The notes under the pieces: generated by a model | Told to the model about the DNA's origin: nothing | Seen by the model: only the letters and a program-made list of their open reading frames with translations | Database searches by the model: none | Translations under genes and position numbers: made by a program | IMG/VR virus record: IMGVR_UViG_3300027969_000094 | Origin: an uncultured virus (IMG/VR IMGVR_UViG_3300027969_000094) | Lineage: Duplodnaviria; Heunggongvirae; Uroviricota; Caudoviricetes | Reading direction: 5' to 3' (one strand) | Length of the DNA stretch: 64,000 nucleotides | Shown here: positions 564 through 15,297 of the stretch, in pieces | Numbering within the stretch: the first letter of the stretch is position 1 | How the letters are laid out: each line of letters opens with the position of its first letter

Positions 564-703
564 GCGTTCACCACTTACGACGTACTTAAGTTATGAATTT
601 GAGAATTTTGTAGAGTTATTTGTGCGTTGTTTGGGGTATGGGGCAAGGGAGGGGACCCAAATGAAATTCGGGGTGGTGGGGGTCGATATATACGCGCCCA
701 AAC

Positions 704-732
704 TTTACATAAGGGGATACCATGCGTATAAC
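704..732 (+). promoter_or_regulatory. Early sigma70-like promoter P1
   Basis: TTTACA-17-TATAAC; shares AACTTTACWTAAGGGG with P2 and P3. Confidence 0.8.
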
Positions 733-787
733 TTAAATCATGGTAAGCAATCAAGCAAACCATATGACTAACTACAAGGAGAATGTC

Positions 788-1027: not shown

Positions 1028-1034
1028 CCAACAC

Positions 1035-1052
1035 GGGGGACGAAAGTCCCCC
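1035..1052 (+). other. GC-rich hairpin with GAAA tetraloop (no U-tract)
   Basis: gggggac-gaaa-gtccccc between two genes. Confidence 0.6.
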
Positions 1053-1073
1053 ACTAATTAAGGAGCAATCAAA

Positions 1074-1238
1074 ATGAATAACAAATCAATAATTGACCAA
1101 CTAAATGAATTACGGGACAAAGAAACACCCGAGCAACGCAAGGCATTCTTTGAGGCAGAGCAACGCTACATGGCAGAGCAAGAGAGGTTAGCTGATCTTG
1201 CTCATGAGTTATACATCGCACAACGCTATATGAAATAA
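1074..1238 (+). CDS. Small hypothetical protein (54 aa), not in ORF track
   Basis: AAGGAG RBS; MNNKSIIDQL...QRYMK. Confidence 0.65.
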   Translation: MNNKSIIDQLNELRDKETPEQRKAFFEAEQRYMAEQERLADLAHELYIAQRYMK

Positions 1239-1248
1239 GGAGCTAATC

Positions 1249-1422
1249 ATGCTTACATTCAAATCTATTCTGTTTTTATGCTTTACATTCACTGTTGCAT
1301 TCTGTTTCTTTATCACTAACACATGGGTACACGGTGGATTGTTGTATATCGGAGGCACTGTAGTTTCTACTATTGCCATCACAATGTTGTTTTTCTTTAA
1401 GGAGTGTGAAGATGCGAGCTAA
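1249..1422 (+). CDS. Small membrane protein (57 aa, two hydrophobic segments), not in ORF track
   Basis: AAGGAG RBS; MLTFKSILFLCFTFTVAFCFF... Confidence 0.6.
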   Translation: MLTFKSILFLCFTFTVAFCFFITNTWVHGGLLYIGGTVVSTIAITMLFFFKECEDAS

Positions 1423-1735
1423 TATCCTACCTACTTGGACTGCTATCAATAAGCATATAGCTAGTACTAAAGACCATTGCAATATTGCTACGCCAATCGA
1501 ATGTACTGACGGTTTCACCATGTCAGTACAGGCAAGTAAGCACCATTACTCAACGCCTCGTGCTGATAACACTACAGCATATATACAGTATGAGGTAGGT
1601 TATCCAAGCCAGCGTGAAGAGCTACTCATGCCTTTTCATGAGTGCGAAGACAGCACAGTATTCTGTTGGGTTCCTGCTGAGGTAATCATTCAAGTGATAC
1701 TTAAGCACGGTGGAATGTGTAGCGATTCCTTGTAG
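1412..1735 (+). CDS. Hypothetical phage protein (DGFTMSVQAS..HYS.P motif)
   Basis: AAGGAG RBS, ATG 1412, followed by a terminator. Confidence 0.7.
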   Translation: MRANILPTWTAINKHIASTKDHCNIATPIECTDGFTMSVQASKHHYSTPRADNTTAYIQYEVGYPSQREELLMPFHECEDSTVFCWVPAEVIIQVILKHGGMCSDSL

Positions 1736-1740
1736 CACCT

Positions 1741-1770
1741 AGCCGACCCCGAAGGGTCGGCTTTCTTTTT
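1741..1770 (+). terminator. Rho-independent terminator
   Basis: agccgaccc-cgaa-gggtcggct followed by T-tract. Confidence 0.85.
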
Positions 1771-1777
1771 GCCTTTT

Positions 1778-1811
1778 GAAACCAGTTATTTGTCCTCGAG
1801 CACACAGCGAG
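1778..1811 (+). repeat. Motif A copy 1 (GAAACCAGTTATKTGTCCTCG + hairpin)
   Basis: 21-nt motif repeated at 2688 and 3469. Confidence 0.9.
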
Positions 1812-1856
1812 CGTGTAGCCAAGGGCGTTGCGTAGCTATTCATGCGGGCGTGAAAC

Positions 1857-1885
1857 TTTACTTAAGGGGCTTGTGAGCGTATAAC
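1857..1885 (+). promoter_or_regulatory. Early sigma70-like promoter P2
   Basis: TTTACT-17-TATAAC. Confidence 0.8.
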
Positions 1886-1949
1886 TAAATCATGGTTAGG
1901 CAATTCGGTTTAACCATGCAGTACTTTATTTTTATAAGGAGAAGTCATC

Positions 1950-2600
1950 ATGGCTAAATCTAGCCCTGCATTACCCGTAGTAGATTCATTCGAGATCACC
2001 AGCCTCAAGGATGGTGCGTATAAACAAGCGGTCGCAACTGACCGCATGCGTAGCGTTGCTCGTTATGTAATGGCTCAGAGCAAGTCGTTTCCTGAGTCAG
2101 TACCTGACGAAATTAAAGAGCAACTGTATGAAGGTTATCGTCTCCGCTTTAATGAGATCAACATGCCTGAGAAATACGCAGTTGTTAACGATCACTACTT
2201 ACTCATTGATGGATCGAATCCTGATCTTGAAAACGAGCGTGAAAAGGTGATTATCGGTGTTGATTACTGCTACGCATACAGTCAGCAACAGTACGGGAAA
2301 CTCAAGAATGAGAATCCTAATCTACACGCTCTGATTAAAGGGTGGAGAGATCGTACTAGTTCTTATTGCTCTAATCGTTTAGCTGACCTAAAGCGTCAGG
2401 CTCGTGTCATCATGAATGAAGGTAAAACGAGAGAGCGTACTGCAACAATTGATTTTGCTCAGCGTGTCACCGAGACATTCAAGGGCGATCAAGGGTTAGT
2501 AGTTAAGTGTAAGAATGCTATTGCTCGTGGTGACAATACTGCGAATGAGGCAAAACTCAAAACCGCTATTGACGCATTCATGGTGAAGTGGAATGCCTAA
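1950..2600 (+). CDS. Hypothetical early protein, paralog of 2833-3414
   Basis: Strong RBS; shares EITSLKD, ES.PDEI, LRFNE, KGWRD, SNR..DLKR blocks with the next gene. Confidence 0.85.
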   Translation: MAKSSPALPVVDSFEITSLKDGAYKQAVATDRMRSVARYVMAQSKSFPESVPDEIKEQLYEGYRLRFNEINMPEKYAVVNDHYLLIDGSNPDLENEREKVIIGVDYCYAYSQQQYGKLKNENPNLHALIKGWRDRTSSYCSNRLADLKRQARVIMNEGKTRERTATIDFAQRVTETFKGDQGLVVKCKNAIARGDNTANEAKLKTAIDAFMVKWNA

Positions 2601-2631
2601 GTAGTATTCGGGGATAGTGAATCCCCCCAAT

Positions 2632-2659
2632 AAGCCACCCTTCGGGGTGGCTTTTTTTT
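2632..2659 (+). terminator. Rho-independent terminator
   Basis: aagccaccc-ttcg-gggtggctt followed by T-tract. Confidence 0.9.
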
Positions 2660-2687
2660 CGCCTAAATTTTACAAGCCCCCCAATTT

Positions 2688-2722
2688 GAAACCAGTTATT
2701 TGTCCTCGCGCGCACACCGAGG
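2688..2722 (+). repeat. Motif A copy 2
   Basis: gaaaccagttatttgtcctcg...cgagg. Confidence 0.9.
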
Positions 2723-2728
2723 GCGTGG

Positions 2729-2758
2729 CTAATTAGAGTTCCATACCATAGTGGAACT
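2729..2758 (+). promoter_or_regulatory. Motif B site (CTAWTTAG-N4-CCAY-N6-GTGGA)
   Basis: ctaattagagttccataccatagtggaact, abutting the -35 of P3. Confidence 0.75.
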
Positions 2759-2786
2759 TTACATAAGGGGTTCTGTCCTGTAGAAC
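2758..2786 (+). promoter_or_regulatory. Early sigma70-like promoter P3
   Basis: TTTACA-17-TAGAAC. Confidence 0.7.
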
Positions 2787-2832
2787 TGTAAGTAATGAAG
2801 CAATAGTGCTTCAGAAAATGAAAGGACATATT

Positions 2833-3414
2833 ATGTCTAAGAAAGTTGAAATAACATCCTTAAAGGATGCGTCTTACCAAGGTTGTATCAGTGCAGAACG
2901 TGGTGTATCAATCGGTAGGTTCATACATGAGAAGTGCCCGACGTTCTTAGAGTCCATTCCCGATGAGATAAGGGCAGAACTCGAAGAGGGGCAGATGTTA
3001 CGTTTTAATGAACTCAACCCTGCCCAACACTATACCGATAATTGGACACCTTGCGAAGAGGGAACAAAGGGTTCTAAACGTGTAGACATTAATGTAGTGA
3101 TGGCTTATTCATCCCAAGCATTTGGTAACTTCCGCAATGATGAACCTATCAAGCATGGTATTCATAAGGGATGGCGGGACGATTGGTCGGACTATAAGTC
3201 CAATCGCATGAAGGACTTGAAGAGATACGTTAAACAGTATCTAGATAGTTTGGCGGGTAAAAAGCGGGAACGTGCCGTTACTAAGGACTTTGCCTTGTGG
3301 CTTAAGGAAGATGTCTTAGCAAGTATCAAAGCAAGGGCTAAGACGGCTAAGGGTAGAGGGGATACTACAGTAGACGATGCTGTAGTGAATGCGATAGCTA
3401 AAGCTATCAAGTAG
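2833..3414 (+). CDS. Hypothetical early protein, paralog of 1950-2600
   Basis: AAGGA RBS, ATG 2833; visible alignment with the preceding gene. Confidence 0.85.
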   Translation: MSKKVEITSLKDASYQGCISAERGVSIGRFIHEKCPTFLESIPDEIRAELEEGQMLRFNELNPAQHYTDNWTPCEEGTKGSKRVDINVVMAYSSQAFGNFRNDEPIKHGIHKGWRDDWSDYKSNRMKDLKRYVKQYLDSLAGKKRERAVTKDFALWLKEDVLASIKARAKTAKGRGDTTVDDAVVNAIAKAIK

Positions 3415-3418
3415 GACT

Positions 3419-3454
3419 AGGGGATGGGGCTAAATTGCCCTGTCCCCTTTTTTT
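3419..3454 (+). terminator. Rho-independent terminator
   Basis: aggggatggggc-taaatt-gccctgtcccct followed by T-tract. Confidence 0.8.
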
Positions 3455-3468
3455 GCGTTTGCTAAACA

Positions 3469-3505
3469 GAAACCAGTTATGTGTCCTCGCGCGCGTGTAC
3501 GAGGG
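3469..3505 (+). repeat. Motif A copy 3
   Basis: gaaaccagttatgtgtcctcg...cgagg (one substitution). Confidence 0.9.
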
Positions 3506-3530
3506 AATTCCCCATGCCAACACAAGGTCA

Positions 3531-3560
3531 CTATTTAGCTTTCCACGGTCTAGTGGAATT
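3531..3560 (+). promoter_or_regulatory. Motif B site
   Basis: ctatttagctttccacggtctagtggaatt. Confidence 0.75.
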
Positions 3561-3660
3561 GGACTGTGCATCATTTAGAATTCTAAGAACTGACAGGGTT
3601 AGATTAAATTCCAAAAACCTATTCAGAACTTTTTTACCTGTTTGGAATTTTTTTGCCTTG

Positions 3661-3673
3661 TAACACTTTGATT
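3661..3673 (-). promoter_or_regulatory. IHF consensus site inside an inverted repeat
   Basis: Minus strand AATCAAAGTGTTA matches WATCAANNNNTTR; flanked by ccttgtaa/ttacaagg. Confidence 0.5.
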
Positions 3674-3865
3674 TACAAGGACATTCTAAAAAAATTCCAA
3701 AATTCCAACTTTTTTTAGGAGGGGGTCGGGTAAATTGAGAAAAAAGAGGGAGAGCAAGGGTTGCTCAGCCAGTGCAACTTTTAACTGCAAGGTAACGTCT
3801 CCCCCTAATCCTGTTTGGAATTTTGGAATTTTTCTATTATTTATTATTTATTATTACTACTACTA

Positions 3866-3896
3866 CTATATAACATAAGGCTTTCAGCCCGATTTT
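3866..3896 (+). repeat. 31-bp imperfect direct repeat, copy 2
   Basis: ctatataacataaggctttcagcccgatttt. Confidence 0.85.
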
Positions 3897-3990
3897 TACC
3901 CCGTTAAAAAAATTCCAAAACGCTTTTTAAACTTGGAATTTTTCTAGAATTTTTTAGCCCATTTTGGAATTTTTACCCCCAGCCTCGTAT

Positions 3991-4039
3991 AAAAAAGTCA
4001 TACAAGACCATTGACCGAAATGTAAAGTTAAAGTATAAT
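3991..4039 (+). promoter_or_regulatory. Strong sigma70 promoter P4 with conserved upstream element
   Basis: AAAAAAGTCATACAAGACCA-TTGACC-17-TATAAT. Confidence 0.85.
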
Positions 4040-4092
4040 AGTCTTGTCGATGGGGAAGAAACCAACGCAGAACACCGCAGACCTCACCGACA

Positions 4093-4122
4093 CTATTTAG
4101 CTTTCCACGATGTAGTGGAATT
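4093..4122 (+). promoter_or_regulatory. Motif B site
   Basis: ctatttagctttccacgatgtagtggaatt. Confidence 0.75.
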
Positions 4123-4150
4123 TGTTTTAACTCTAATCAAGGAGAAGTAC

Positions 4151-4342
4151 ATGGGCAAACTAAAGCAAGCCTTAATCGTTTTCGAAGAGCAACGTGCTGG
4201 CAAAGGAAGCAAGGAATTAGATCCACGCTATCGTGGAATGGTAGATAGCGACGAAGAGTGGGCAATCTACGAAGCAGAGTTCAACGACTGGCTCGACAAG
4301 TACGAAGCATCGTTCGGTGATGAGAAAGGGTATCTACCATGA
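4151..4342 (+). CDS. Small acidic hypothetical protein
   Basis: AAGGAG RBS, ATG 4151. Confidence 0.7.
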   Translation: MGKLKQALIVFEEQRAGKGSKELDPRYRGMVDSDEEWAIYEAEFNDWLDKYEASFGDEKGYLP

Positions 4343-4539
4343 GTATCAATCTTGATGCGTGGTTAGACCACGAATGGGCGAAAGCCTGTGAAGCAGACGA
4401 TGCGGAGGAGGGCATGATTCAGTATTGGGGTGAGCGTTGTCCCGACTACGACAGACAATGCCCGACTTGCCAAGCATGGAAAGAGTTTGAAGCGTCAGGC
4501 GAAATCGTTAAGACCTATAAGGAGTTCGACCATGATTGA
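4339..4539 (+). CDS. Small Cys-containing hypothetical protein
   Basis: ATGA overlap; CPD...CPTC. Confidence 0.65.
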   Translation: MSINLDAWLDHEWAKACEADDAEEGMIQYWGERCPDYDRQCPTCQAWKEFEASGEIVKTYKEFDHD

Positions 4540-4750
4540 TGAGACTTTTAACCCACAGTGCAAGCTATGTGGCGACATCTACGATGAGCAACGGTTTCGA
4601 CTGGGCTACGCAGTTTGTTGTCCATGCGGTGATGAAATCGCAAAGAAGGTGAACACCAAGCGGACAGTCGTACCCATGAACAAATCGAACTACATGATGG
4701 TAACGGATATGACTATTCTTAAACAACTTAACCCAAAGAGGACAACATGA
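4532..4750 (+). CDS. Small zinc-finger-like protein
   Basis: CKLC...CCPC; AAGGAG RBS before ATG 4532. Confidence 0.65.
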   Translation: MIDETFNPQCKLCGDIYDEQRFRLGYAVCCPCGDEIAKKVNTKRTVVPMNKSNYMMVTDMTILKQLNPKRTT

Positions 4751-4983
4751 TAGTCGGCAAGCGGAAGGAAAAGGAATTGGGGATTAGGTGGAATCGCACC
4801 AATCGTTCAAAGGAATATAGGGGTAAGCGAGTCAAACCCTTGACTGCTAGTTTGTATGCTAAGAACGATAGGCAATATAGACGCTATCGTGGTGGGTTGA
4901 ATGAGTCTATCGTTCATGTAGTTTGCCTAAGACTTAATCGACCAGTAGATGTCCCAATGTGTCCAATGAGGAGATGGAAATGA
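4747..4983 (+). CDS. Small basic hypothetical protein
   Basis: ATGA overlaps at both ends. Confidence 0.6.
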   Translation: MIVGKRKEKELGIRWNRTNRSKEYRGKRVKPLTASLYAKNDRQYRRYRGGLNESIVHVVCLRLNRPVDVPMCPMRRWK

Positions 4984-5171
4984 AAGGCGAAGATAAGATA
5001 TTCCTACTGGAAGTTATCAATGCGGTGCGTTCGGGGGGTAACGAGATGGCTAGGTTTCTACTAGATAGTGGAAACATAGATAGGATTATCCGTATCAAAC
5101 GAGAGGTGGGTGCGGATGAACTAGACCGAGAGTTAATCAAATTGAAGGAGGTGGTGTATGAAAGTCATTAA
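4980..5171 (+). CDS. Hypothetical protein
   Basis: GAGGAG RBS, ATGA overlap. Confidence 0.6.
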   Translation: MKGEDKIFLLEVINAVRSGGNEMARFLLDSGNIDRIIRIKREVGADELDRELIKLKEVVYESH

Positions 5172-5352
5172 GTTATATCGCAAGCCCGACAAGCCCGAGT
5201 TCTACAAGCTGGTGCGAAGCGATGCCCATTCTCTATTAGTTCATTACCCGATAGACGTATGCAATCGCAAGCGACAGTCGAGGTGGTTTTACTTTGATGA
5301 AGTGTACGTGGACTGGGTTAGAACATTCATAGGGGAAGAGCATGGGGTATAG
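5158..5352 (+). CDS. Hypothetical protein
   Basis: GGAGG RBS. Confidence 0.65.
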   Translation: MKVIKLYRKPDKPEFYKLVRSDAHSLLVHYPIDVCNRKRQSRWFYFDEVYVDWVRTFIGEEHGV

Positions 5353-5776
5353 ATCAACAGTTGCATATTCAATAAGGTTTATTCCACGACTAAGTGAAAT
5401 ACAAACTACCGATGATGAGATAGAGAAAGCAAAGGCGACGTTCTTTACATTCCTAGCTGAAGCCAAGGCAAACGAAGACACGGCTGGTGCGTTCCTTGAC
5501 GAAGACCTAAAGGTAGACGAGGAGAAGTTAGCTATCTATTTCTTTGCTGACAACGTGAAATGGTACGAATCTTATGAGGATGTTAAGTGCCACGAAGCGT
5601 TACTGGATTTGTCAAAAGAGTGGGCTGACGATGGTGACTGTTCTAACCCATACATAGGCGGTGCGTTTGCACGTATCGGTGAAGAGATGGAAGATAACGT
5701 AGAAGAAGTGTGGGGTCAGGGCGACTATGACTGGATAAGTGTGCATCGTTCTATGTCATGCGATTGGATGGATTAA
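5342..5776 (+). CDS. Acidic hypothetical phage protein (MGYRS.V..., KWY, RIGEE motifs)
   Basis: 144-aa ORF coupled to the previous gene. Confidence 0.75.
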   Translation: MGYRSTVAYSIRFIPRLSEIQTTDDEIEKAKATFFTFLAEAKANEDTAGAFLDEDLKVDEEKLAIYFFADNVKWYESYEDVKCHEALLDLSKEWADDGDCSNPYIGGAFARIGEEMEDNVEEVWGQGDYDWISVHRSMSCDWMD

Positions 5777-5823
5777 AAAAGTCATACAAGACCATTGACT
5801 GAAATCATAAGTCAAGTTATAAT
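5775..5823 (+). promoter_or_regulatory. Strong sigma70 promoter P5 with the same upstream element as P4
   Basis: AAAAAAGTCATACAAGACCA-TTGACT-17-TATAAT. Confidence 0.85.
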
Positions 5824-5849
5824 ATACATACTGAAGGGAAGGAGTTTTT

Positions 5850-5936
5850 ATGAAAGACTTTTGGGGTAAGTTGTTAATCGTTGTATCGGTAGGCTATTTA
5901 GCTTACCACGTGATAGTGGATTTACTTTTAGCGTAG
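5850..5936 (+). CDS. 28-aa hydrophobic peptide (contains a motif B site)
   Basis: AAGGAG RBS; MKDFWGKLLIVVSVGYLAYHVIVDLLLA. Confidence 0.45.
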   Translation: MKDFWGKLLIVVSVGYLAYHVIVDLLLA

Positions 5937-5960
5937 TTCAATTAAACCAAGGAGAAGTGT

Positions 5961-6872
5961 ATGAACATGGAATTAACCAAACCCGATCACCTGATTAGCT
6001 TAGCTAGTTCGGCAGTCCTAGTAAGCGTAGACATCAGCGTATGGTCGGCAACCAAGCAAGACCGAGGTATCAGTGATGAGGTTACTACCTCAAAGAACGC
6101 AGACAAACACGCGGGTCGTTACGTTAAGAATCTCTTAGCTAACCATCCCAAGCATAAGGCAGTCGTTAACTATCGGCAGACCATATACAACTGGCTTCAA
6201 CGTAGGACTTACAAGTGGAATCAATCGCAGAATTTATTGCCAAGCGTAGACGTTCCCAAGTTTAAGCAAGAGTATCAAGAACACCAACTAGCTTTCCATG
6301 GTTTAGTGGATTCATTAACAACGGACTACGATTCAATCGTGTCGGACATGGCTTTCAAGCAAGGCACTATGTTCAACCGAGATGACTACCCGACTAAGGA
6401 GCAAGTTCATGCCAAGTTCAGTTTGAACCTGTATGTGTCCGAAGTTCCGATGAACGACTTTCGCTGTGGGATAGCAGAGGACATCGCTGATGACTTGTTT
6501 GCTACATACAAAAAGCAAGCGCAAGGGATTATCGAATCGATTGGGCAAGAACAGTCAGAACGGTTGCTCGAGGTAATGGAGTCCATATCTCATTGTTGTG
6601 GTCATGATGAGTCAGAGGTCAATGGCGAGGTGCGAACCAAACGTCGTAAGATTTACGATACAACGATTCAGAAAGCCCTAGAAATGTGCGAAAGTTTTAA
6701 GCGATTTAATCTTAAGAATGATTCAGGATTAGAGTCAGCACGTGCATCGCTAGAGAAAGTATTACGTGGTGTGAAGGCAGAGGACATTCGTGATTCCGAT
6801 GCAGTTCGCCATCATGTTAAGGAAGGGATAGACGATATCCTTTCTAAGTTCGGTAGTTTCAATTCAATCTAA
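5961..6872 (+). CDS. Conserved phage protein upstream of AAA/vWA pair (DUF3150-like, tentative)
   Basis: 303 aa, strong RBS; context and FNRDDYP motif. Confidence 0.6.
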   Translation: MNMELTKPDHLISLASSAVLVSVDISVWSATKQDRGISDEVTTSKNADKHAGRYVKNLLANHPKHKAVVNYRQTIYNWLQRRTYKWNQSQNLLPSVDVPKFKQEYQEHQLAFHGLVDSLTTDYDSIVSDMAFKQGTMFNRDDYPTKEQVHAKFSLNLYVSEVPMNDFRCGIAEDIADDLFATYKKQAQGIIESIGQEQSERLLEVMESISHCCGHDESEVNGEVRTKRRKIYDTTIQKALEMCESFKRFNLKNDSGLESARASLEKVLRGVKAEDIRDSDAVRHHVKEGIDDILSKFGSFNSI

Positions 6873-6888
6873 TCAAGGAGAAATACAA

Positions 6889-7962
6889 ATGAGCAAACTC
6901 AACTTCAATGCAACTGTAACCATCAACGAGTTACGTAAGACCATTCCCCTAATAGGTTCATCAATCACACCAATCATACTGTCCGAACCTGGATGTGGTA
7001 AGACTTCTCTCTTATCTATGATTCGTGAGGATTTGGGCGAGGGCTACGACTACATCTATGTAGACTGTCCTGTGAAAGATATGTCAGACATCGGTATGAC
7101 TATCCCCAACCATGCGAGCAAGTCACTAGAGTATTACGTGTCATCTCTCTTCAAGCTTGACTCTCCTAAACCAAAGGTCATCTTGCTTGACGAGTTCATG
7201 AAGTCACCCAAGCTATTGCAAGTTATCTTTACCCGTCTGATGTTGGAGAGAATGGTAGGTGACGTTCCACTACCAAGTGGATCGATAGTTTTCGGTACGT
7301 CAAACAATTCAAGCGATGGGGTAGGCGATACGATGTTGGCTCATGCTGGTAATCGTGTGTGCATTATGGAAATGAGTAAGCCGATTCCGAATGAATGGTT
7401 AGAGTGGGCATCGGCTAATGGTATCTCACGTGTTGTTCGTGCGTTCGTTGCGTTGTTCCCTCGTACCCTTGCATCGTATCGTGATGGCAATCAAGACGAC
7501 AACCCATACGTGTTCAACCCTAAAAAGACTCAACTCTCATTCTGTTCACCAAGGTCTCTCGCTAAGTGTGATGTCATTGTGAAGAATCGTGATGCGTTAG
7601 GTGAGAATGCAACGATGGTCGCTCTTGCTGGCACGATTGGCTTGGCTGGTGCTGGTGATATGTCAGCGTTCCTATCGCTAGAGAAGACTTTAGTAGATGT
7701 TAGGGACATCGTCAAAGATCCAGATGGCATTAAAGTTCCTGATGAAATATCAGCACAGTTGATGATTATGTTTCAAGCAGTAGATGTTCTCGAGACACAG
7801 GATGAGTTAACGAAGTTCATGAAGTTCGTTAATAAAGTTCCTAGTTCAGAGATTCAAGCGGTGTTCTTTACCATGATGATGCGTAACACCAAGGCAATCA
7901 AGTTGGCACGTAACAATATGCAGATTGCAGAGTGGGCTAAGAACAACCACGAATTGTTCTAA
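6889..7962 (+). CDS. MoxR-like AAA+ ATPase
   Basis: Walker A SEPGCGKTS, Walker B ILLDE, sensor TSN, SPRS motif. Confidence 0.85.
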   Translation: MSKLNFNATVTINELRKTIPLIGSSITPIILSEPGCGKTSLLSMIREDLGEGYDYIYVDCPVKDMSDIGMTIPNHASKSLEYYVSSLFKLDSPKPKVILLDEFMKSPKLLQVIFTRLMLERMVGDVPLPSGSIVFGTSNNSSDGVGDTMLAHAGNRVCIMEMSKPIPNEWLEWASANGISRVVRAFVALFPRTLASYRDGNQDDNPYVFNPKKTQLSFCSPRSLAKCDVIVKNRDALGENATMVALAGTIGLAGAGDMSAFLSLEKTLVDVRDIVKDPDGIKVPDEISAQLMIMFQAVDVLETQDELTKFMKFVNKVPSSEIQAVFFTMMMRNTKAIKLARNNMQIAEWAKNNHELF

Positions 7963-7990
7963 TTAGTTAACCATCATGGAGTGGAAAGCT

Positions 7991-8086
7991 ATGTTAGCAC
8001 TTGGATTATTTATGTGGGGTTTCACCATGTTTGCCATAGGCATCGTGGTGGGTTTTTTAATATGTTTAACGAGGACTAAGAAATGA
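7991..8086 (+). CDS. 31-aa transmembrane peptide
   Basis: Hydrophobic ORF with ATGA overlap into the next gene. Confidence 0.4.
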   Translation: MLALGLFMWGFTMFAIGIVVGFLICLTRTKK

Positions 8087-9408
8087 ATAACAAACAAGAA
8101 ATTAGATTGAAGAAGGCTCATATCGCCTTGATGAAGCATCCCGAGACTGCTCTCTATTCGGGCGTAATGCTGATGGGTAAGTCAGAGGTGAGTGATGAAT
8201 CCTTTACGGCATACACCGATGGTGTCAACAAGAGATACTCTAAACCATTCCTAGAGACTATCGACTGCGAACCCAAGTTGCGTGGTCTTGTCCTCCATGA
8301 GAATCTTCATGTGGCATTGAAACAAATCCCACGTGGCAAGGATATGTTCAAAGAAGATTCTAAGGTTGCAAATATGGCGGCGGATTTTGTAGTCAACGAT
8401 ATCATCTTCAACATCAAAGGAACTATTAGCGGAGGCAACGAGGCTATCGTTCAGCTACCCGAAGGTGCGTTGTATGACCCATTCTTTCACAACTGGAATA
8501 TGCGTGAAGTCTACAACCATATCCGCAAGGAGAATCCTGAGCGAAGTAAAGGTAAGGGTAGCTCAAGTGGCTCACCTAGTGATGACGGCGAACAAGGTGA
8601 TGGTGACGAAGATGAATCACAGAATAGTTCTCCATCACAGGGTGGAAAGCAAGATAGCAATAACAAGATCAAAGCTAATGGCAAAGAGTATGACATGGGC
8701 GGTGATGGTTTCGATGAGCATGACTGGGAATCATTTAAGGACATGACCCCCGAGGAAATCAAGGAATTGTCAGAAGGTATTGACAAGGCTTTGCGTGAAG
8801 GCGGTATGCTCGCTGGTCGGATGGGTGCGAAGATGCCACGTGCAATCGGCGAACTACTCGAACCCAAGATAGATTGGCGAGATGTTTTGCGTGACTTTGT
8901 TTCATCAGCTATGAAAGGCAAAGATGAGTTTACATGGCGACGCATGAACAAGCGTCAGATGGCTAATGATATGTATATGCCAAGCATGGAGAACGAAACC
9001 ATCGGCGAGGTCATCGTGGCGATTGATACGTCAGGCTCGATTGGTAGTGTAGAACTAACCGAGTTCGCTACGGAACTGGCATCGATTTGCGACCTTGTGC
9101 AACCCGAGGCTGTGCGTGTTTTGTGGTGGGACACGATGGTGCATGGCGAACAAGTCTTCAAGCCCGACTCATTCAACAACATCGGAGCATTACTTAAACC
9201 ATTGGGCGGTGGTGGTACTCACGTGAGTAGCGTGTCTCAATACATCGTTGAGAAGAAACTTAACGCAGAGTGTGTCATCGTGTTTACCGATGGTTACGTG
9301 GAGCATGACATCGAGTGGAATATCGTTCCACCTACCCTGTGGATGATTACTCAGAACAAGGGCTTGAATGTTCCATGCGGTAAGAAAGTCATGTTCGATA
9401 GGGAGTAA
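8083..9408 (+). CDS. Metallopeptidase-vWA domain protein (DUF2201-like)
   Basis: HExxH (LHENLH), acidic linker, MIDAS DTSGS, GGGT, FTDG. Confidence 0.85.
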   Translation: MNNKQEIRLKKAHIALMKHPETALYSGVMLMGKSEVSDESFTAYTDGVNKRYSKPFLETIDCEPKLRGLVLHENLHVALKQIPRGKDMFKEDSKVANMAADFVVNDIIFNIKGTISGGNEAIVQLPEGALYDPFFHNWNMREVYNHIRKENPERSKGKGSSSGSPSDDGEQGDGDEDESQNSSPSQGGKQDSNNKIKANGKEYDMGGDGFDEHDWESFKDMTPEEIKELSEGIDKALREGGMLAGRMGAKMPRAIGELLEPKIDWRDVLRDFVSSAMKGKDEFTWRRMNKRQMANDMYMPSMENETIGEVIVAIDTSGSIGSVELTEFATELASICDLVQPEAVRVLWWDTMVHGEQVFKPDSFNNIGALLKPLGGGGTHVSSVSQYIVEKKLNAECVIVFTDGYVEHDIEWNIVPPTLWMITQNKGLNVPCGKKVMFDRE

Positions 9409-9410
9409 TC

Positions 9411-9605
9411 ATGGGCGATGGAGGACTCTCACGAATTAAGCATGACCTAGTGAAAGACTTGATGGAGCAATATGGAAAAGGTGCGTATTCCTATGCTCTA
9501 GAAAGACTTATTTCGTATCAAAACAAAGGCGACGACATGGGTGAGAACCTATGGCGAACTGTAATTGCAGATTTAGATGAACACTTTAAAGGAGAAGGAC
9601 AATGA
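9411..9605 (+). CDS. Hypothetical protein
   Basis: GGAG RBS, coupled ORF. Confidence 0.6.
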   Translation: MGDGGLSRIKHDLVKDLMEQYGKGAYSYALERLISYQNKGDDMGENLWRTVIADLDEHFKGEGQ

Positions 9606-10624
9606 AAGCATTAACGTGGGACAGACTGACTGACATTAAAAATACTGTTAAGCCATACAGGGGGACAACCAATCGGTTTCCTGTTGGTGACAGGCGACAC
9701 AACCACAAAGACTTTATTGCCGAGGAACGTAATGGCGAGCAAGTGTATGTAATCCGTTATGGTTATGGGTGGGAGTGCAAAGATGACCACACTAAGGAGG
9801 AGTGGCTTGTTAACCAAAACACCAATCAACCTAACATCCACGAGCGGACTACTAACGGAGTCACCACCTATGAAAGTTATAGAACAATCCCTAGAGAGTT
9901 AGGCATCGTGCGTTCGGACAATACGTTCGAGTTCACACACTATAACTACGGACAGGGCGATAACATAATGCTTAGCAACTGGAGCAGAGGATACTTTTGT
10001 AGGAGTTCACGACATGGTGGAATGATATATAGAGCGAACGATATCTTCCATCCTATCTTCAAGGGCATGAGAGTTAACTGCGAGACGATGATGCCTCACA
10101 AGGATAGCGAGTACCAAGTTACTGGCAAGCGTGTAAGCCGTAAGGATGCTAAGGAGTTTCTTAACCGATACACAGACTTCTACCAAGTTAACGAAGTCAT
10201 GCTTAAGACGATGGAGTGGAAGGGTTACATGGAGACTGCGGTTGATGTAATGAAGTCATTAGACTTGACGACAGAAAACTGGTCTCTTATGCAAGACGAG
10301 AGGGACAAACTTATCAAGTTCGCTGATGAGAATCTAAATACTTGTCCACTAGATGCTGGAATCGCATTTGCCTTAGCGTATGACGTAATGAATACTTATT
10401 CAAGAGTTCGTGCGTTCGTAGACCCCAATGCGAGTAGCCACTATGTAAGAGAGGTAGAGTTGGATATTTTGTTCGCCAATATGAAACGCAAGCTGAACAA
10501 GGAGTTGTATAAGCGTAATCCATCGGTAATGAAACTCACAGAGTATGTACCAAACCAACCTTATCCGCCTAGCGAGTGGGGTATAGATATTACAGTCAAT
10601 GGCAAAGAAGTAGAACAACTATAA
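9602..10624 (+). CDS. Hypothetical protein (340 aa)
   Basis: Long ORF, RBS, ATGA overlap. Confidence 0.8.
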   Translation: MKALTWDRLTDIKNTVKPYRGTTNRFPVGDRRHNHKDFIAEERNGEQVYVIRYGYGWECKDDHTKEEWLVNQNTNQPNIHERTTNGVTTYESYRTIPRELGIVRSDNTFEFTHYNYGQGDNIMLSNWSRGYFCRSSRHGGMIYRANDIFHPIFKGMRVNCETMMPHKDSEYQVTGKRVSRKDAKEFLNRYTDFYQVNEVMLKTMEWKGYMETAVDVMKSLDLTTENWSLMQDERDKLIKFADENLNTCPLDAGIAFALAYDVMNTYSRVRAFVDPNASSHYVREVELDILFANMKRKLNKELYKRNPSVMKLTEYVPNQPYPPSEWGIDITVNGKEVEQL

Positions 10625-10634
10625 GGAGAAGTAA

Positions 10635-10823
10635 ATGAAAGACGGATTGTTTACTCAAAACCCTGAGTATCACGAAGGAACATTTATCGAAGAAGACGAT
10701 GATTTAATTCATTTTCTTATAGAACTTAGTGAAAGGCTGGCAGACGAATCAGACTACGACGAGTATTTAGCCCCAAAACTTTTAAGCGCAATCAAATTTT
10801 TAATAGGAGAAGACCATGAATAA
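10635..10823 (+). CDS. Small acidic hypothetical protein
   Basis: AAGGAG RBS. Confidence 0.65.
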   Translation: MKDGLFTQNPEYHEGTFIEEDDDLIHFLIELSERLADESDYDEYLAPKLLSAIKFLIGEDHE

Positions 10824-11754
10824 ACTAATCTACGAAGGATTTGAAACAGAAAACTTGGCAGCGGAGTTAGAGAACTCATCATGTAAGAGACTCATACAAG
10901 AACTAAACTTTAAGTATGGTCTCAAGGTAGTAGATAAAGTTGATCCCCATTCTCTAAGTCGTAGCAGTCCTATTAGTTTTTTACTTGCTGACCCCAATGG
11001 TTTTATGGTGGCGAAGGTGTGGACAGACAAGGAATGTGATGATGTTGTCTATAACTATCGCTCGCCTTTCTATAAGAAAGAACGTGGCTCTGACTCAGCT
11101 GACCGAGAGACTTTGCATAGTAAGAAACTCTCAACATTGATGGCAACTTTAAAACGCAATAATGTCGTTCCACCCCCTGATGGAATGATAAATAAGTATC
11201 CAGCAGATTCTTTTAATCAAGCCATAGGTTATATGGATTCTTATCATGGTCGAGATTACAAACAAAGTAATTTCTCAGCAGAGGAAATTCATACGATGCT
11301 CAAGGTAGTTTTACTAGGGGAAAGTCCTAGTGAATTAAATCTAAATAATTGTAAAGAAACACTTGACAAATGGGATAGTATGGATAGAATTAAGGCTAGA
11401 AAGCGTGAAGATATTGAACGCTTTTTTAATAGTGAATTTTACGCAATCGGTGCGGATAAGTTAAATCATTTAGTTATAGGTTCAGTTAAGCGTATGCCAA
11501 GACAAGCAACAGAACACTACTCTTTTGAAGTAGTCAAGCCGTTCAAACGCATGATGGAATTGCCTGACGAGTTTAAGGCAGTCATGCTGATGAACAAGGT
11601 TCATGCGGAAGGTAAGAATATTACTAGGTTCTACGCAAATACCATTCCATCCGACAATGGATACAACCCTGACCTCGATCTGATAAATGTTAATGGTCGT
11701 CACGTCGATGAGTTTAATTGCCAATGGACTCTAGTGCCATGCTCGGGAATTTAA
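10816..11754 (+). CDS. Hypothetical protein (312 aa)
   Basis: Long ORF with AGGAG RBS. Confidence 0.8.
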   Translation: MNKLIYEGFETENLAAELENSSCKRLIQELNFKYGLKVVDKVDPHSLSRSSPISFLLADPNGFMVAKVWTDKECDDVVYNYRSPFYKKERGSDSADRETLHSKKLSTLMATLKRNNVVPPPDGMINKYPADSFNQAIGYMDSYHGRDYKQSNFSAEEIHTMLKVVLLGESPSELNLNNCKETLDKWDSMDRIKARKREDIERFFNSEFYAIGADKLNHLVIGSVKRMPRQATEHYSFEVVKPFKRMMELPDEFKAVMLMNKVHAEGKNITRFYANTIPSDNGYNPDLDLINVNGRHVDEFNCQWTLVPCSGI

Positions 11755-12074
11755 GCCCAGTAGTTCATCAATATGATTTTGGTCTCTATCGTGTTCCTTT
11801 GCGTAAGGAAGGAAACTCCTACACCATCTTTGTTGCTGATGGATTTAATCGGGTATTCGATGAGGATACTTTACCTGATGAAGTCAAAACTAAGATGGCG
11901 ATGATACTGGCAAGTGCAAAACAAATCGTAACTGATGAGAAGGTAACGCAGTTGCAGTTAATGGCAACTACGGTGGACAACGAGTTTAGAGATGTGGGAT
12001 GGCGAGCAAGTGACAGTTGGTTTTGTATCATATTGTCTCTTGCGTCTCTAATGAAACTAAGAGGAGAAGACTGA
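11718..12074 (+). CDS. Hypothetical protein (start uncertain)
   Basis: ORF fills the gap between neighbours; TGATG overlap downstream. Confidence 0.65.
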   Translation: MPMDSSAMLGNLSPVVHQYDFGLYRVPLRKEGNSYTIFVADGFNRVFDEDTLPDEVKTKMAMILASAKQIVTDEKVTQLQLMATTVDNEFRDVGWRASDSWFCIILSLASLMKLRGED

Positions 12075-12364
12075 TGGCTACGACACCCGAGGGCAAAGTA
12101 AAGGACAAGATTAAGAAAGTTCTTAAGGAGAGAGGTATCTACTTTGTAATGCCAGCGACAGGAGGATACGGGTCAAGCGGTGCGCCCGATATTCTCGTAT
12201 GTCATAAAGGAATGTTCTATGGCATCGAGTGCAAGGCTGGTGATAACAAACCGACTGCGTTGCAGAAGGATAATTTAAATCGCATTGAAGATAATGGTGG
12301 CTATGCTTTTGTCATCAATGAAACTAATGTCGATGACTATATGAAAGTGCATTTCAATGATTAA
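12074..12364 (+). CDS. VRR-NUC / Holliday-junction-resolvase-like nuclease
   Basis: TPEGKVK...GAPD...IECK...PTALQ PD-(D/E)xK pattern. Confidence 0.8.
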   Translation: MATTPEGKVKDKIKKVLKERGIYFVMPATGGYGSSGAPDILVCHKGMFYGIECKAGDNKPTALQKDNLNRIEDNGGYAFVINETNVDDYMKVHFND

Positions 12365-12494
12365 GAAACAACCAACCCCAGTATTCCAATTAAAGCCTTA
12401 CAAGCCTGTACCTCACCCCATGCAACATCGCATAAGTGAGTTCAGAACGATACCAAGTCAAGTAACAGGGAGAAAAGATGAGAGCAAAAACTGA
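12357..12494 (+). CDS. Small hypothetical protein (45 aa)
   Basis: ORF overlapping both neighbours; not in ORF track. Confidence 0.4.
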   Translation: MIKKQPTPVFQLKPYKPVPHPMQHRISEFRTIPSQVTGRKDESKN

Positions 12495-12624
12495 ATTTGA
12501 AAACTGGATTGAAAGCGAGAAGTTTGTCAGTGCAGAAGGCGGACTCGAGGAGGCTTATACAACTGGCTTCAATCGGGCGATTGAGTTAATGGAAGAATTT
12601 TTAAAGGACAAACAAAGTGAATGA
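12478..12624 (+). CDS. Small hypothetical protein (48 aa)
   Basis: GGAG RBS; not in ORF track. Confidence 0.5.
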   Translation: MRAKTEFENWIESEKFVSAEGGLEEAYTTGFNRAIELMEEFLKDKQSE

Positions 12625-12808
12625 AAATGATTTAAGAGATTGCTTTGCTATGTTTGCATTGATGGGCTACATTGTAAAAAGAGATATAGACCCTCATATG
12701 TTTGAGACTTGCTACAACGTAGCTGATGCCATGATAAAGGCTCGCAATGCAAAAGATGAAACAGGAATTGTCGCAGTAAAACGTAGTTCAACTAAAAAGG
12801 AGAAGTAA
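12617..12808 (+). CDS. Small hypothetical phage protein (LRD.FA...ADAM..AR motif)
   Basis: AAGGA RBS, GTG start. Confidence 0.7.
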   Translation: MNENDLRDCFAMFALMGYIVKRDIDPHMFETCYNVADAMIKARNAKDETGIVAVKRSSTKKEK

Positions 12809-13345
12809 ATGAAGAAGTTAACCAAAACCACCAAAGTGTTACGCTATATCCGTAGTCATCCAAAGGCTCTTGCAAGTGAAGTAGCTAAAGCCGTTGGAGT
12901 TAGTGTCAATACTGTGTATCAAACTACATACAATGCTAAGAAGAAAGCTAAGTCATTACCAATGACGGCTCTTGCACCTAGCACCAATGCACCTAATGCT
13001 CAGATGTCTTTGAATCTATTTAGCGATCCACCCAAGCGTGGAAGACCATTTAAGCTGAAAACAAAACTTGGTACTTACACTAAAAAGAATCAAACTAGCC
13101 TTACAGAGATTCGTGATGGGCAAGTTCGTCTAGTAAAAGCTTTAACTGACAACGTCAATCACCCTCCACACTACAAGGCGGGCGGGATCGAGACTATCGA
13201 TTTCATCGAGGCAAAGTCTCTTAACTATAACCTTGGTAATGTAGTCAAGTACATCACACGTGCTGACCACAAAGGGAATAAGTTAGAAGATTTACAGAAG
13301 GCGCAATGGTATCTCGCTAGAGAACTTAAGAATCTAAGCAAGTAA
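12809..13345 (+). CDS. N-terminal HTH fused to DUF3310 (T7 gp1.7/SaV-like) domain
   Basis: ASEVAKAVGVS HTH; DNVNHPPHY..GGIETIDFI...GNVVKY..RA..K...EDL.KA.WYL. Confidence 0.75.
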   Translation: MKKLTKTTKVLRYIRSHPKALASEVAKAVGVSVNTVYQTTYNAKKKAKSLPMTALAPSTNAPNAQMSLNLFSDPPKRGRPFKLKTKLGTYTKKNQTSLTEIRDGQVRLVKALTDNVNHPPHYKAGGIETIDFIEAKSLNYNLGNVVKYITRADHKGNKLEDLQKAQWYLARELKNLSK

Positions 13346-13349
13346 CTCT

Positions 13350-13384
13350 TGGGGAGTTAGGCTTCGGCTTCGCTCCCTATTTTT
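13350..13384 (+). terminator. Probable terminator
   Basis: gggag...gc-ttcg-gc...ctccc followed by tattttt. Confidence 0.55.
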
Positions 13385-13416
13385 GTATCTATTAAATTTG
13401 TTATTTAAGGAATTAA

Positions 13417-15297
13417 GTGAACCTAATCACCCTAGATTTTGAGACGTACTACGCTCAAGATTACTCGTTAACTAAGCTAACAACTGAGGAATACATCAGG
13501 GATAGACGCTTTGAGGTTATCGGTGTTGCGGTTAAGGTCGGCGATGGTATCGCTGAATGGTTTTCTGGCTCACACCTTGACATCCAAAAATACCTTTCCA
13601 CGTACCCGTGGAACGATTCTGCTCTCCTTTGTCATAACACGATGTTTGATGGGGCTATCCTTGCATGGCGATTTGGCATCAAACCAAAGCTATATCTCGA
13701 TACTTTGTGCATGGGTAGGGCTACCAACGGTGTTGATGTGGGAGGCTCTTTAGCCTACCTATCTGAGCGTTACAAGTTAGGCAAGAAGGGTACAGAAGTC
13801 ATTGACGCTAAAGGTAAGAACATAACTGGTTTCTTAAATAGCGAGCTTGCCCAGTACGGCGAATATTGTAAGAATGATGTGGAGTTAACTTTTAAGCTCT
13901 TCCAAGTATTGTCGAGTGCGTTTCCAGCAGACGAATTACAACTAATTGATTTGACTTTGCGGATGTTTATTAATCCCATACTGGAGGTTGACGATGCTTT
14001 ATTGATTGAGCGTCTTGAAGAACTTAAAGATGAGAAGTTCAAGCTACTTGGAACGCTTAAAGAGAAGTTAGGATGCGAGCTTGAAGAAGACGTACGCAAG
14101 AAGTTAGCCAGTAATAAACAGTTTGCTCAAGTGTTAGAAGACTTTGGTATTGAAGTGCCAATGAAGGAAAGCAAGACTACTGGCAAGCTAACCTATGCGC
14201 TGGCAAAGAACGATACAGGATTCATAGCGTTAACAGAACACGAAGACCCATTCATCCAGCAACTCGCTGCGGTGCGTTTGGGAACTAAATCAACTATTGA
14301 AGAGTCAAGAATAGAGAGGTTCATAGATGTCGGTTCAAGGAACAAAGGTCGATTACCTATTCCGCTTAAATACTACGGGGCGCATACGGGTCGTTGGGCA
14401 GGGTCGGATAAGGTCAATTTCCAAAACCTACCGAGTCGTGACAAGAAGAAAAAAGCCCTTAAGAACGCAGTCGTTGCACCCGAAGGTTACGCGGTTATCA
14501 ACTGCGATTCGTCTCAAATTGAGGCACGTGTACTCGCTTGGCTTTCGGGTCAGGAAGACTTGGTTAAAGAGTTTGCCGATGGGGACGATGTTTACTCCAT
14601 CTTTGCGTCGAAGATATACGACTACGAAGTCACAAAGAAAAATCCCGTTGAAAGGTTCGTGGGTAAGACCTGCATTCTTGGACTGGGATACGGCACTGGC
14701 GCATTAAAGTTACAGCACACACTAAAGACTAGTCCGCCAGGCGCTGATCTCACTAAGGAGAAGTGTGACGAGATAGTTAAATTGTACAGAGACACTAACG
14801 ACATGATCGTTAAGTTATGGAGAGAAGGCGATAAGGCTTTAAAGTCCATGGCTGACTGGCAACCTGAGTTTGAGCCGTTTGACTATGGTATGCACGGGTG
14901 CGTAAAGGTAACTCAAGAAGGCTTTAAATTGCCAAACGGGTTATACATCCGCTACCCCGACCTCAAACTCAACACTGATGAAACTAAAAGCGGATACGAG
15001 TACAAGTCACGCAAAGGCCCCGTGTCTCTATGGGGTGGTTCTATTGTGGAAAACGTAGTTCAAGCTCTTGCACGGATCATCGTGGGCGAGCAGATGTTAA
15101 AACTTACCGAGCGTTATCGACCCGTGTTAACTGTTCACGACGCTGCGGTGTGTGTAGTACCCGAAGAAGACGTAGACGAGGCTTGTGCTTGGATCGTCGA
15201 GGTCATGTCAACACCACCAGACTGGGCTAAAGGACTGCCTGTGGCTTGTGAAGCTCAAGTCGGTAAAAATTATGGGGAGATGGAAGAATGGCGATGA
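13417..15297 (+). CDS. polA: Family A DNA polymerase with 3'-5' exonuclease domain
   Basis: ExoI DFET, HNTMFD, TGRW, NFQNLP, motif A DSSQIEAR, motif B KTCILGLGYG, motif C TVHD. Confidence 0.95.
   Translation: MNLITLDFETYYAQDYSLTKLTTEEYIRDRRFEVIGVAVKVGDGIAEWFSGSHLDIQKYLSTYPWNDSALLCHNTMFDGAILAWRFGIKPKLYLDTLCMGRATNGVDVGGSLAYLSERYKLGKKGTEVIDAKGKNITGFLNSELAQYGEYCKNDVELTFKLFQVLSSAFPADELQLIDLTLRMFINPILEVDDALLIERLEELKDEKFKLLGTLKEKLGCELEEDVRKKLASNKQFAQVLEDFGIEVPMKESKTTGKLTYALAKNDTGFIALTEHEDPFIQQLAAVRLGTKSTIEESRIERFIDVGSRNKGRLPIPLKYYGAHTGRWAGSDKVNFQNLPSRDKKKKALKNAVVAPEGYAVINCDSSQIEARVLAWLSGQEDLVKEFADGDDVYSIFASKIYDYEVTKKNPVERFVGKTCILGLGYGTGALKLQHTLKTSPPGADLTKEKCDEIVKLYRDTNDMIVKLWREGDKALKSMADWQPEFEPFDYGMHGCVKVTQEGFKLPNGLYIRYPDLKLNTDETKSGYEYKSRKGPVSLWGGSIVENVVQALARIIVGEQMLKLTERYRPVLTVHDAAVCVVPEEDVDEACAWIVEVMSTPPDWAKGLPVACEAQVGKNYGEMEEWR

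Follow-up and report, generated by a model that had tools for sequence, protein, structure and literature searches.

The early region of phage phiC31 combines terminators, conserved 21-bp promoter words and conserved inverted repeats that act as dispersed repressor palindromes. The stoperators of the temperate Cluster A mycobacteriophages, read by L5 gp71 or the TipsytheTRex repressor, are described in PMC9283540 as 13-bp asymmetric sites oriented with transcription and bound by a monomeric helix-turn-helix (HTH) protein. The repressor also has a stoperator domain, halts transcription elongation and gives the lysogen immunity. Cluster O mycobacteriophages possess no integrase and carry 17-bp dyad repeats throughout the genome, partly in coding regions, for which PMC4351075 predicts dimer binding and names no reader. 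T4-type phages contain terminator-promoter junctions between early genes, the PeSL and PmSL elements, associated with gene gain, loss and replacement; PeSLs include an AT-rich stretch, flank many unrelated genes and give circles demonstrated by inverse polymerase chain reaction (PMC4122927 and PMC2839356). The ssiA and ssiB primase sites of RSF1010 are 40-nt hairpins found once per strand, on opposite strands at the origin (PMC8567376), and TTTGGTTA of NrS-1 is the specific recognition site of an AEP-type primase at a mobile-element origin (PMC8718748). Here we analyze the 64,000 nucleotides (the window) of the uncultured virus record IMGVR_UViG_3300027969_000094, in which a module consisting of a terminator, an asymmetric motif A and a palindromic motif B occurs three times between positions 1741 and 3560 and encloses two genes, referred to as slot genes. 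The composite element is real and comes with a newly identified family of candidate readers and with a motif that points at a putative origin.

Module architecture

The building blocks that an earlier note on this DNA had placed in the module are present in the window. Motif A, the 21-mer GAAACCAGTTATKTGTCCTCG, starts at 1778, 2688 and 3469; even at three mismatches there are 3 matches in 64 kb, against 0 of 100 shuffles. Each copy is preceded by a terminator-like element (hairpins and T-runs at 1741-1762, 2632-2653 and 3419-3448) and followed by a motif B site. Copies 1 and 2 continue into promoter-like TTTACW-17-TAKAAC pairs read from the sequence, which a promoter scanner did not list because their -10 element lacks the last T. 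Copy 3 has no promoter and leads into a repeat cluster that is denser than any other 450-nt segment of the 64 kb (16 words; median, 3). Two points were absent from the earlier note: the slot genes are paralogues (37% over 189 amino acids (aa), E 1e-40), and motifs A and B also occur outside the modules.

704..732, plus strand: promoter-like pair P0, TTTACA-17-TATAAC, of the module promoter type, no motif A or B in front (sequence; repeat families D7 and D9)
1741..1771, plus strand: terminator-like hairpin and T-run, module 1 (hairpin scan)
1778..1798, plus strand: motif A copy 1, invariant core 1778-1787, then alternating tract to about 1820 (sequence match)
1839..1854, unstranded: motif B palindrome 1, operator-like, two bases before the -35 (profile match)
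1857..1885, plus strand: promoter-like pair 1, TTTACT-17-TATAAC, putative (sequence)
1950..2600, plus strand: slot gene 1, 216 aa, putative dimeric reader of motif B (homology, model, co-variation)
2632..2662, plus strand: terminator-like hairpin and T-run, module 2 (hairpin scan)
2688..2708, plus strand: motif A copy 2 (sequence match)
2740..2755, unstranded: motif B palindrome 2 (profile match)
2758..2786, plus strand: promoter-like pair 2, TTTACA-17-TAGAAC, putative (sequence)
2833..3414, plus strand: slot gene 2, 193 aa, paralogue of slot gene 1 (homology)
3419..3455, plus strand: terminator-like hairpin and T-run, module 3 (hairpin scan)
3469..3489, plus strand: motif A copy 3, the final copy on this strand ahead of the origin-like region (sequence match)
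3542..3557, unstranded: motif B palindrome 3 (profile match)

Relatives were collected through an exact scan of viral contigs with the 21-mer (17 stretches), slot-family scans (the best 80 of 196 viral stretches, twice, and the best 80 of 199 metagenome stretches) and a scan with a neighboring 303-aa gene (the best 80 of at least 91 confirmed stretches). The module survey comprises 436 distinct modules from 315 stretches, with 268 distinct slots between successive modules; the relatives compared are related to one another and do not represent independent samples. Across hundreds of them the junction stands as a conserved composite signal, with the exception of one component. The CTCG-N9/10-CGAG hairpin previously noted behind motif A can be drawn in all three window copies, but its arms pair at a loop of 9 or 10 in only 23 of the 436 modules, a number that rises to 54 when every loop length of 3-20 is allowed, and 60 sampled modules fold with an average z-score of -0.14. 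A conserved hairpin was consequently rejected. The conserved feature at this position is an alternating purine-pyrimidine tract, whose longest run averages 9.6 compared with 5.1 after shuffling (436 modules). Spacing between motifs A and B is bimodal, at about 54-57 and 63-70, and we do not claim helical phasing because testing periods between 10.5 and 13 bp gave a flat curve.

The alternating (CG/TG) tract occupies 1795-1820, 2705-2725 and 3486-3502 of the window and reaches a run of at least 8 in 75% of the 436 modules. It is absent from motif A copies within genes and could favor Z-DNA or bending upstream of the promoter.

Motif B forms an operator-like array in the early arm

Motif B is a 16-bp palindrome of two 5-bp half-sites separated by 6 bp (5-N6-5), present in about 20 copies over the first 14 kb of the window and differing in sequence between lineages. 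At each slot gene a copy ends two bases ahead of the -35, other copies lie 60-80 bases behind sigma70-type promoters at 4011 and 5795, and the motif recurs at intervals of about 0.6 kb across the early genes as far as the beginning of the polymerase gene. Weaker matches are found at 1603 and 2577. The AT-rich part beside the palindrome is limited to a 7-bp flank. In addition to the three module copies, the profile places the following sites:

4104, 4222, 4621, 5057, 5383, 5905, 6295, 7266, 7970, 8631, 10006, 10345, 11169, 11646, 13027 and 13597 (together spanning 4104..13612), unstranded: 16 further motif B sites, most inside genes (profile match)

The confinement to the early arm is seen in relatives as well. 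A profile trained on module-proximal sites only found dispersed sites almost exclusively within 16.5 kb of the left end, whereas Markov controls gave 0-1 per genome; a single weak site lay beyond 16.5 kb, in G009, and only 2 sites were found in the divergent G002. G002 possesses its own palindrome with 15 exact matches, all at 2.8-14.0 kb. Using each genome's own profile, 173 sites fall in 176 kb of early arm compared with 20 in the other 498 kb of 11 genomes, a figure that is partly circular as the profiles were trained there. A de novo spaced-dyad search of 88 early regions recovered, in 78 of them, a 16-bp palindrome that occurs six times or more; the other 10, with no call or a weak or odd-length one, were dropped from the set. 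Half-sites across lineages include TCCAC, CCCAC, TTCAG, TTCAC, ATCGG, GTCGG, ATCAG, CTCAG, CCTAN and CGTAT. The same geometry combined with drifting half-sites points to one protein family.

A terminator-like junction ahead of the polymerase gene (window 13340-13420) marks the right border of the array. At this junction, four relatives carry motif B and a plus-strand motif A, and one carries a minus-strand motif A over the ribosome site.

Slot proteins co-vary with motif B

To compare motif B with the slot protein and with a neighboring gene, we used the 63 of the 78 loci that also hold a family gene (1953 pairs). Distance between B versions follows slot-protein identity (Spearman -0.56, partial -0.52) more closely than neighboring-gene identity (Spearman -0.27, partial -0.09). 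No slot-protein pair at least 55% identical differs in B, while 13 pairs at least 75% alike in the neighboring gene do differ, their slot proteins being only 20-24% alike. L150, L153 and L176 compared with G002 have a 90-91% identical neighboring gene, 21-24% identical slot proteins and a different B.

Individual residues follow individual operator bases. Among 47 representatives, base 2 is tracked best by residue 138, out of 193 columns, and base 4 by residue 142. In 25 held-out proteins, less than 70% identical to the training set and taken from the 97 B-called loci among 221 with the gene, Lys138 occurs with T in 5/5 and Thr, Asp or Ser138 with C in 20/20, so that the rule held in 25/25, although the lysine proteins number only 5, from 4 loci. 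Pooled counts over 71 rows, leaving out the long branch L228, place Lys138 in 30 of 36 rows with T and 0 of 35 with C, Arg or Lys143 in 35/38 with C5 and 6/23 with G5, and Asp142 in 4/5 with G4 and 1/65 with A4. Asp134 is found in 29 of 43 cases with T1 and Glu134 in 11 of 17 with C1. On a tree built without the candidate columns, changes are shared between residue 138 and base 2 in 6/8 cases (first of 188 columns) and between residue 134 and base 1 in 9/11 (first of 185 columns), with residue 143 tied first for base 5. Residues 134, 138 and 142 follow the same order as the bases that they would contact according to co-variation. Arginine prefers G, asparagine A and aspartate C in protein-DNA contacts, and the observed pairings fit these preferences.

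Several observations weigh against this pairing. The area under the curve for predicting the same B is 0.74 for the slot protein and 0.69 for the neighboring gene, a small gap. On the tree, N142D does not rank first for base 4 (2/4 shared changes), and an independent-pairs sign test on well-supported branches gave 3 same and 0 opposite changes (p 0.25, underpowered), with less for the other residues. The co-variation analysis covered the slot protein and the neighboring gene, and the genome also carries two HTH-like genes, at 12809-13345 and 22967-23278. B site 1 of the window (TTCAT) deviates from its own consensus. L181, L202, L204 and L218 have a B-type array, and homology of their slot protein to the family is unsupported (probability 3.4%). 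Searches with the slot proteins matched no HTH family or known DNA-binding fold. Weighing both sides, we consider it quite likely, from sequence comparison, that slot proteins pair with motif B as its candidate readers.

Glutamine 26 of slot protein 1 forms the second-ranked column for operator base 2. The L202-type lineage combines a CGTATTA-N2-TAATACG operator array with a 199-213-aa slot protein.

Slot proteins are predicted to form homodimers

The slot family comprises at least 311 clusters at 50% identity. Neither slot protein nor 24 aligned members gave a significant match in Pfam or PHROGs, no relative of slot protein 1 was found in cultured phages, and the ESM Atlas returned unnamed viral clusters only. 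An AlphaFold model (predicted local distance difference test score (pLDDT) 87, predicted template modeling score 0.64) matched nothing in the Protein Data Bank (PDB) or BFVD at E 0.001 in Foldseek; the best structural Z of 6.1 is within noise for helical proteins, and a profile search of PDB sequences gave a best E of 0.16. These blank searches leave novelty of the fold unproven.

The homodimer model scored 0.79 compared with 0.02 for the best of 3 controls; the score mark was reached by 20 of 30 solved pairs and by 1 of 23 single chains. Model contacts agree to at least 93%, with pLDDT of at least 86. The slot protein is thus predicted by modeling to form a homodimer, which supports the dimer that a palindromic site needs. 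Residues 134, 138 and 142 are located on the polar face of a predicted helix spanning 123-155. A point against a reading role of this face is that 142-143 touch the partner within the modeled interface; 134 and 138 are not listed in it. In the dimer model, glutamine 26 touches residue 143 of the partner subunit, hinting at a reading surface made of two subunits.

Positions 1903-2597 and 2812-3089 are each spanned by a metatranscriptome contig, an observation that agrees with expression and is silent on start, strand and level.

Motif A is oriented toward an origin-like region

The core of motif A, GADRCCAGTT, is non-palindromic and invariant across lineages and all types of motif B. The window contains 9 copies of the core against 0.87 expected, six of them outside the modules, listed here together with the origin-like region:

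3550..4000, unstranded: origin-like region with TTCCA/TGGAA repeats in inverted orientation, AT-rich DNA and, at 3661-3673, a match to the integration host factor consensus (repeats; putative origin)
6189..6198, minus strand: motif A core in the 303-aa gene 5961-6872 (core match)
9074..9083, minus strand: motif A core in the VWA/metallopeptidase gene (core match)
10277..10286, minus strand: motif A core in gene 9602-10624 (core match)
12561..12570, minus strand: motif A core before gene 12617-12808 (core match)
13824..13833, minus strand: motif A core in the DNA polymerase A gene (core match)
29338..29347, plus strand: motif A core in the 2338-aa LPD38 gene of the late arm (core match)

The strand of motif A changes at the repeat cluster. 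In the 51 of 60 loci with a clear cluster, copies were counted from 6 kb left to 5 kb right of the marker gene: all 121 on the left side of the cluster are on the plus strand and all 69 on its right side on the minus strand. The last plus copy stands a median of 86 nt before the cluster. Copies within genes are selected at the DNA level: in genes beyond 5 kb of 11 related genomes, 35 antisense copies occur compared with 4.75 under synonymous shuffling (maximum 11 in 200 shuffles), and sense copies number 1 against 1.84 expected. The site in the 303-aa gene falls at YNWLQ in one lineage, at ELASKF/QLVSKF in another and just before the gene in a third, a turnover that shows selection on DNA. Between L195 and L069 an operator-promoter-gene-terminator block (861 nt, 74.6%) is inverted between two A sites that keep their orientation. 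Orientation consequently follows the cluster and not transcription, and an orientation set by transcription was rejected for the left end.

The cluster is present in 10 of 11 genomes, the comparison having covered the right stretch in all but G008, and would, from its repeats, constitute the replication origin. It resembles origins served by primase-helicases. GC skew follows the gene strands and gives no origin position. Tandem arrays of 3-7 motif A copies, 15-22 bp apart, adjoin the cluster where the slot protein is not recognizably of the family; such arrays of 3-7 copies are seen in L202 (about 2.1 kb before the marker gene), L181, L204, L218 and L220. In L228 the G-rich tract of the probable genome end is directly followed by motif A.

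Pointing at the origin-like region from both sides, motif A would serve replication, through priming, helicase loading or polar fork control, and its reader would differ from the slot protein. Some of its distribution speaks against such a role. Beyond 5 kb to the right, 15 copies are plus and 29 minus; a plus copy occurs at 13-15 kb in four genomes, and those of the late arm are on the plus strand. In L220, which is outside the 60 loci, a plus copy lies on the right side of the cluster. Motif A is missing from most of the late arm, a poor fit to general lagging-strand priming. On balance, its placement and strand suggest that motif A is probably a polar, replication-linked site. The late-arm copies are mostly found in two large ejection-type genes (window 26500-36351 and relatives).

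That motif A instead represents a polar signal read by the host and shielding the origin, Chi-like for RecBCD/AddAB or Ter-like, seems unlikely. Its invariance across phages of 35-57% GC with different operators would suit such a signal, as would an orientation relative to the origin comparable with that of Chi sites around oriC and tandem arrays spaced 15-22 bp without helical phasing. However, motif A is not enriched in one Burkholderiales replicon (2.09 Mb; 10 matches, compared with 7 for the control), nor in a pair of actinobacterial bins, a weak test for Chi as these records are not those of a known host, and it is absent from the cultured phage Pag-Yong1. We also rejected an antisense small-RNA model: in-gene copies differ from module copies at degenerate positions, four genomes carry a sense copy before a gene, and no listed RNA contig bridges a module, although the absence of such contigs is inconclusive.

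A proposed repressor with an early-gene operator array

The module would overlay two independent signals on a terminator-promoter junction, and the arrangement of motif B suggests a model for its function. Slot proteins would form a new dimeric DNA-binding family that reads the 5-N6-5 palindrome via the polar face of helix 123-155 (residues 134, 138, 142 and 143). Operators placed against the -35 of their own promoters would confer autoregulation, the array as a whole would shut down or throttle the entire early arm, and lineage-specific operators would lead to immunity-type action against close relatives. Sites at promoters and inside genes, together with a promoter P0 that has no motif B, suit an autoregulated repressor that closes the early arm, and the divergence of specificity between close relatives suits an immunity-like role. 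We regard a new dimeric autoregulated repressor with an early-gene operator array, combined with motif A as a replication-linked site, as a reasonably probable account of the locus. An extended version is more speculative and in our view rather doubtful: a two-code system in a large clade of integrase-free freshwater podoviruses, in which a repressor with a swappable code is paired with an origin-aimed 10-mer. In this version a new-fold dimer would silence the 12-kb early arm via about 20 operators and provide immunity types for a carrier or plasmid-like state, and the polar 10-mer, common to the clade, would be recognized in replication initiation or fork gating of a new type.

In the module promoters the -10 is missing its final T, which counts against repression as they could be activated instead. 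Slot proteins might therefore activate weak promoters or bind motif B as an architectural or entry device that pulls in, protects or organizes DNA. Transfer of T5 DNA in its second step offers a parallel for entry. Even spacing of the array with a sharp right border, the position of most sites inside genes and of the slot genes at the probable left end, and the incomplete -10 all agree with this explanation, to which we nevertheless give little credence. P0 has the same type of -35 and -10 and no motif B, so that B is dispensable for this promoter type; sites just behind the strong promoters at 4011 and 5795 are in operator-like positions; the border of the array coincides with the start of the replication operon; and fast divergence of specificity fits immunity better than a mechanical role. 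The proposal in the earlier note that the junctions act in DNA entry or antitermination drew no support from any test.

The earlier note had also proposed a cassette system in which conserved junctions allow exchange of early genes. Some shuffling does take place. Unrelated genes of several families occupy 19 of the 268 distinct slots, phages carry 1 or 2 family genes, extra upstream modules are found in L049, L093, L101 and L103, a terminator-like hairpin precedes 359 of the 436 modules, and one block is inverted as described above. Modules are also homogenized within genomes: in 55 three-module loci, the 16 bases 3' of the A core have a similarity of 0.80 within a genome compared with 0.65 (same slot) or 0.64 (other slot) between genomes. 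The same family, however, fills 249 of the 268 slots (93%), close to the outcome that the earlier note had named as refuting an exchange system, namely relatives that always carry the same genes. Both motifs are selected inside genes, where they would be useless as junctions, the conserved A core measures only 10-12 bp, and motif B is often missing from the extra upstream modules. That modules are kept mainly as PeSL-like homology patches, for gain, loss and swap of early genes by recombination, is hence improbable. With one family dominating the slots, no conservation of the hairpin and both motifs maintained within genes at a distance from any junction, cassette exchange is best seen as a side effect, and the module as primarily a system of gene control that seldom swaps genes. 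Contig joints between modules 1 and 2 (1789/1794 to 2684/2685) were not accepted as excision, their sides of 21-24 letters probably being repeat artefacts. Functionless leftovers of tandem duplication, which paralogous slot genes might suggest, are scarcely credible given that the genes diverged to 37% while the motif stays 20-21/21 identical, that two modules are retained in single-gene phages, that dispersed motif copies are selected at synonymous positions and that motif A shows strand polarity.

A second family of about 150-170 aa occurs in 8 distinct upstream slots (L101:4264-4746, L103, L166, L175, L196, L222, L242 and L253) and also precedes the first module in other phages. L049:2051-3662 contains homologues of the window genes 785-1027 and 1412-1735 (compared over window 740-1735) in swapped order, and a tail of the 1412-1735 homologue left before the next terminator represents a recombination trace at the junction.

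Genome context

The window represents most of a tailed-phage genome of about 65 kb, with terminase, portal and capsid genes in its right part. It further encodes the 2338-aa LPD38 protein, DNA polymerase A, a primase/helicase with DUF927 (23410-26319) and a protein for DNA ejection. Among cultured phages, the closest capsid relatives reach no more than 71% identity, and sequencing runs with the stretch are freshwater or unlabeled metagenomes. No integrase was found among the window proteins scanned and no prophage carrying the slot family in the genome contigs searched. A search of genome contigs with the neighboring 303-aa gene matched only two short contigs in actinobacterial bins. L235 and L236 are short contigs of this phage group within two actinobacterial genome bins; mis-binning is possible, and they provide no evidence of a host.

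Positions 5961-9408 hold a trio consisting of the 303-aa gene, an AAA ATPase (phrog_1297) and a DUF2201 metallopeptidase/VWA gene, which is conserved in nearly all relatives and contains both motifs. The non-coding segment at 400-700, with G-rich and C-rich tracts between divergent arms, is probably a genome end; 533-563 recurs at 3866-3896. Rfam returned nothing up to E 1 for positions 1-7000. Our literature search, which left most subscription journals and supplements outside, found no account of the slot family or of motifs A and B.

Significance and comparison with known systems

Integrase-free phages with dispersed palindromes are known, Cluster O being a published example (PMC4351075), and their readers mostly are not; here a candidate reader can be named. 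Natural variation in the slot family proposes residue-to-base rules and would give a new DNA-binding family with ready-made orthogonal operator pairs. It also offers a way to ask if abundant uncultured phages exclude their relatives or persist silently. Motif A adds a precisely mapped, strand-polar signal at the putative origin.

With Cluster A stoperators the locus shares more than about 20 sites for one phage protein, here the putative reader, in promoter regions and beyond, and a specificity that diverges between relatives. In contrast to stoperators, motif B is a 16-bp palindrome, lies mostly in genes and would be read by a dimer with no matched fold; the asymmetric site of this locus is motif A, oriented by the origin-like region and not by transcription. 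Cluster O phages are similar in their dispersed palindromes, partly in coding regions, their predicted dimer reader and the lack of an integrase. Here, however, the sites are limited to the early arm and there is a candidate reader with a residue-to-base pattern.

The early region of phiC31 likewise unites terminator, conserved word and dispersed repressor palindromes. phiC31 differs in being a temperate Streptomyces siphovirus with an integrase, and the likeness is one of description only. As in PeSLs, a stem-loop terminator stands directly upstream of a sigma70-like promoter, ribosome-binding site and start codon (copy 3 without promoter); the spacer here is GC-rich and alternating and carries two protein-site-like motifs, and 93% of slots hold one family. 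Motif A recalls the ssi sites in lying on opposite strands on either side of a putative origin, in a phage that encodes a DUF927 primase/helicase. In contrast to ssi sites it is a 10-12-bp word in many copies, without a hairpin (fold z -0.14) and extending out to 10 kb from the origin, and it resembles primase sites in placement only.

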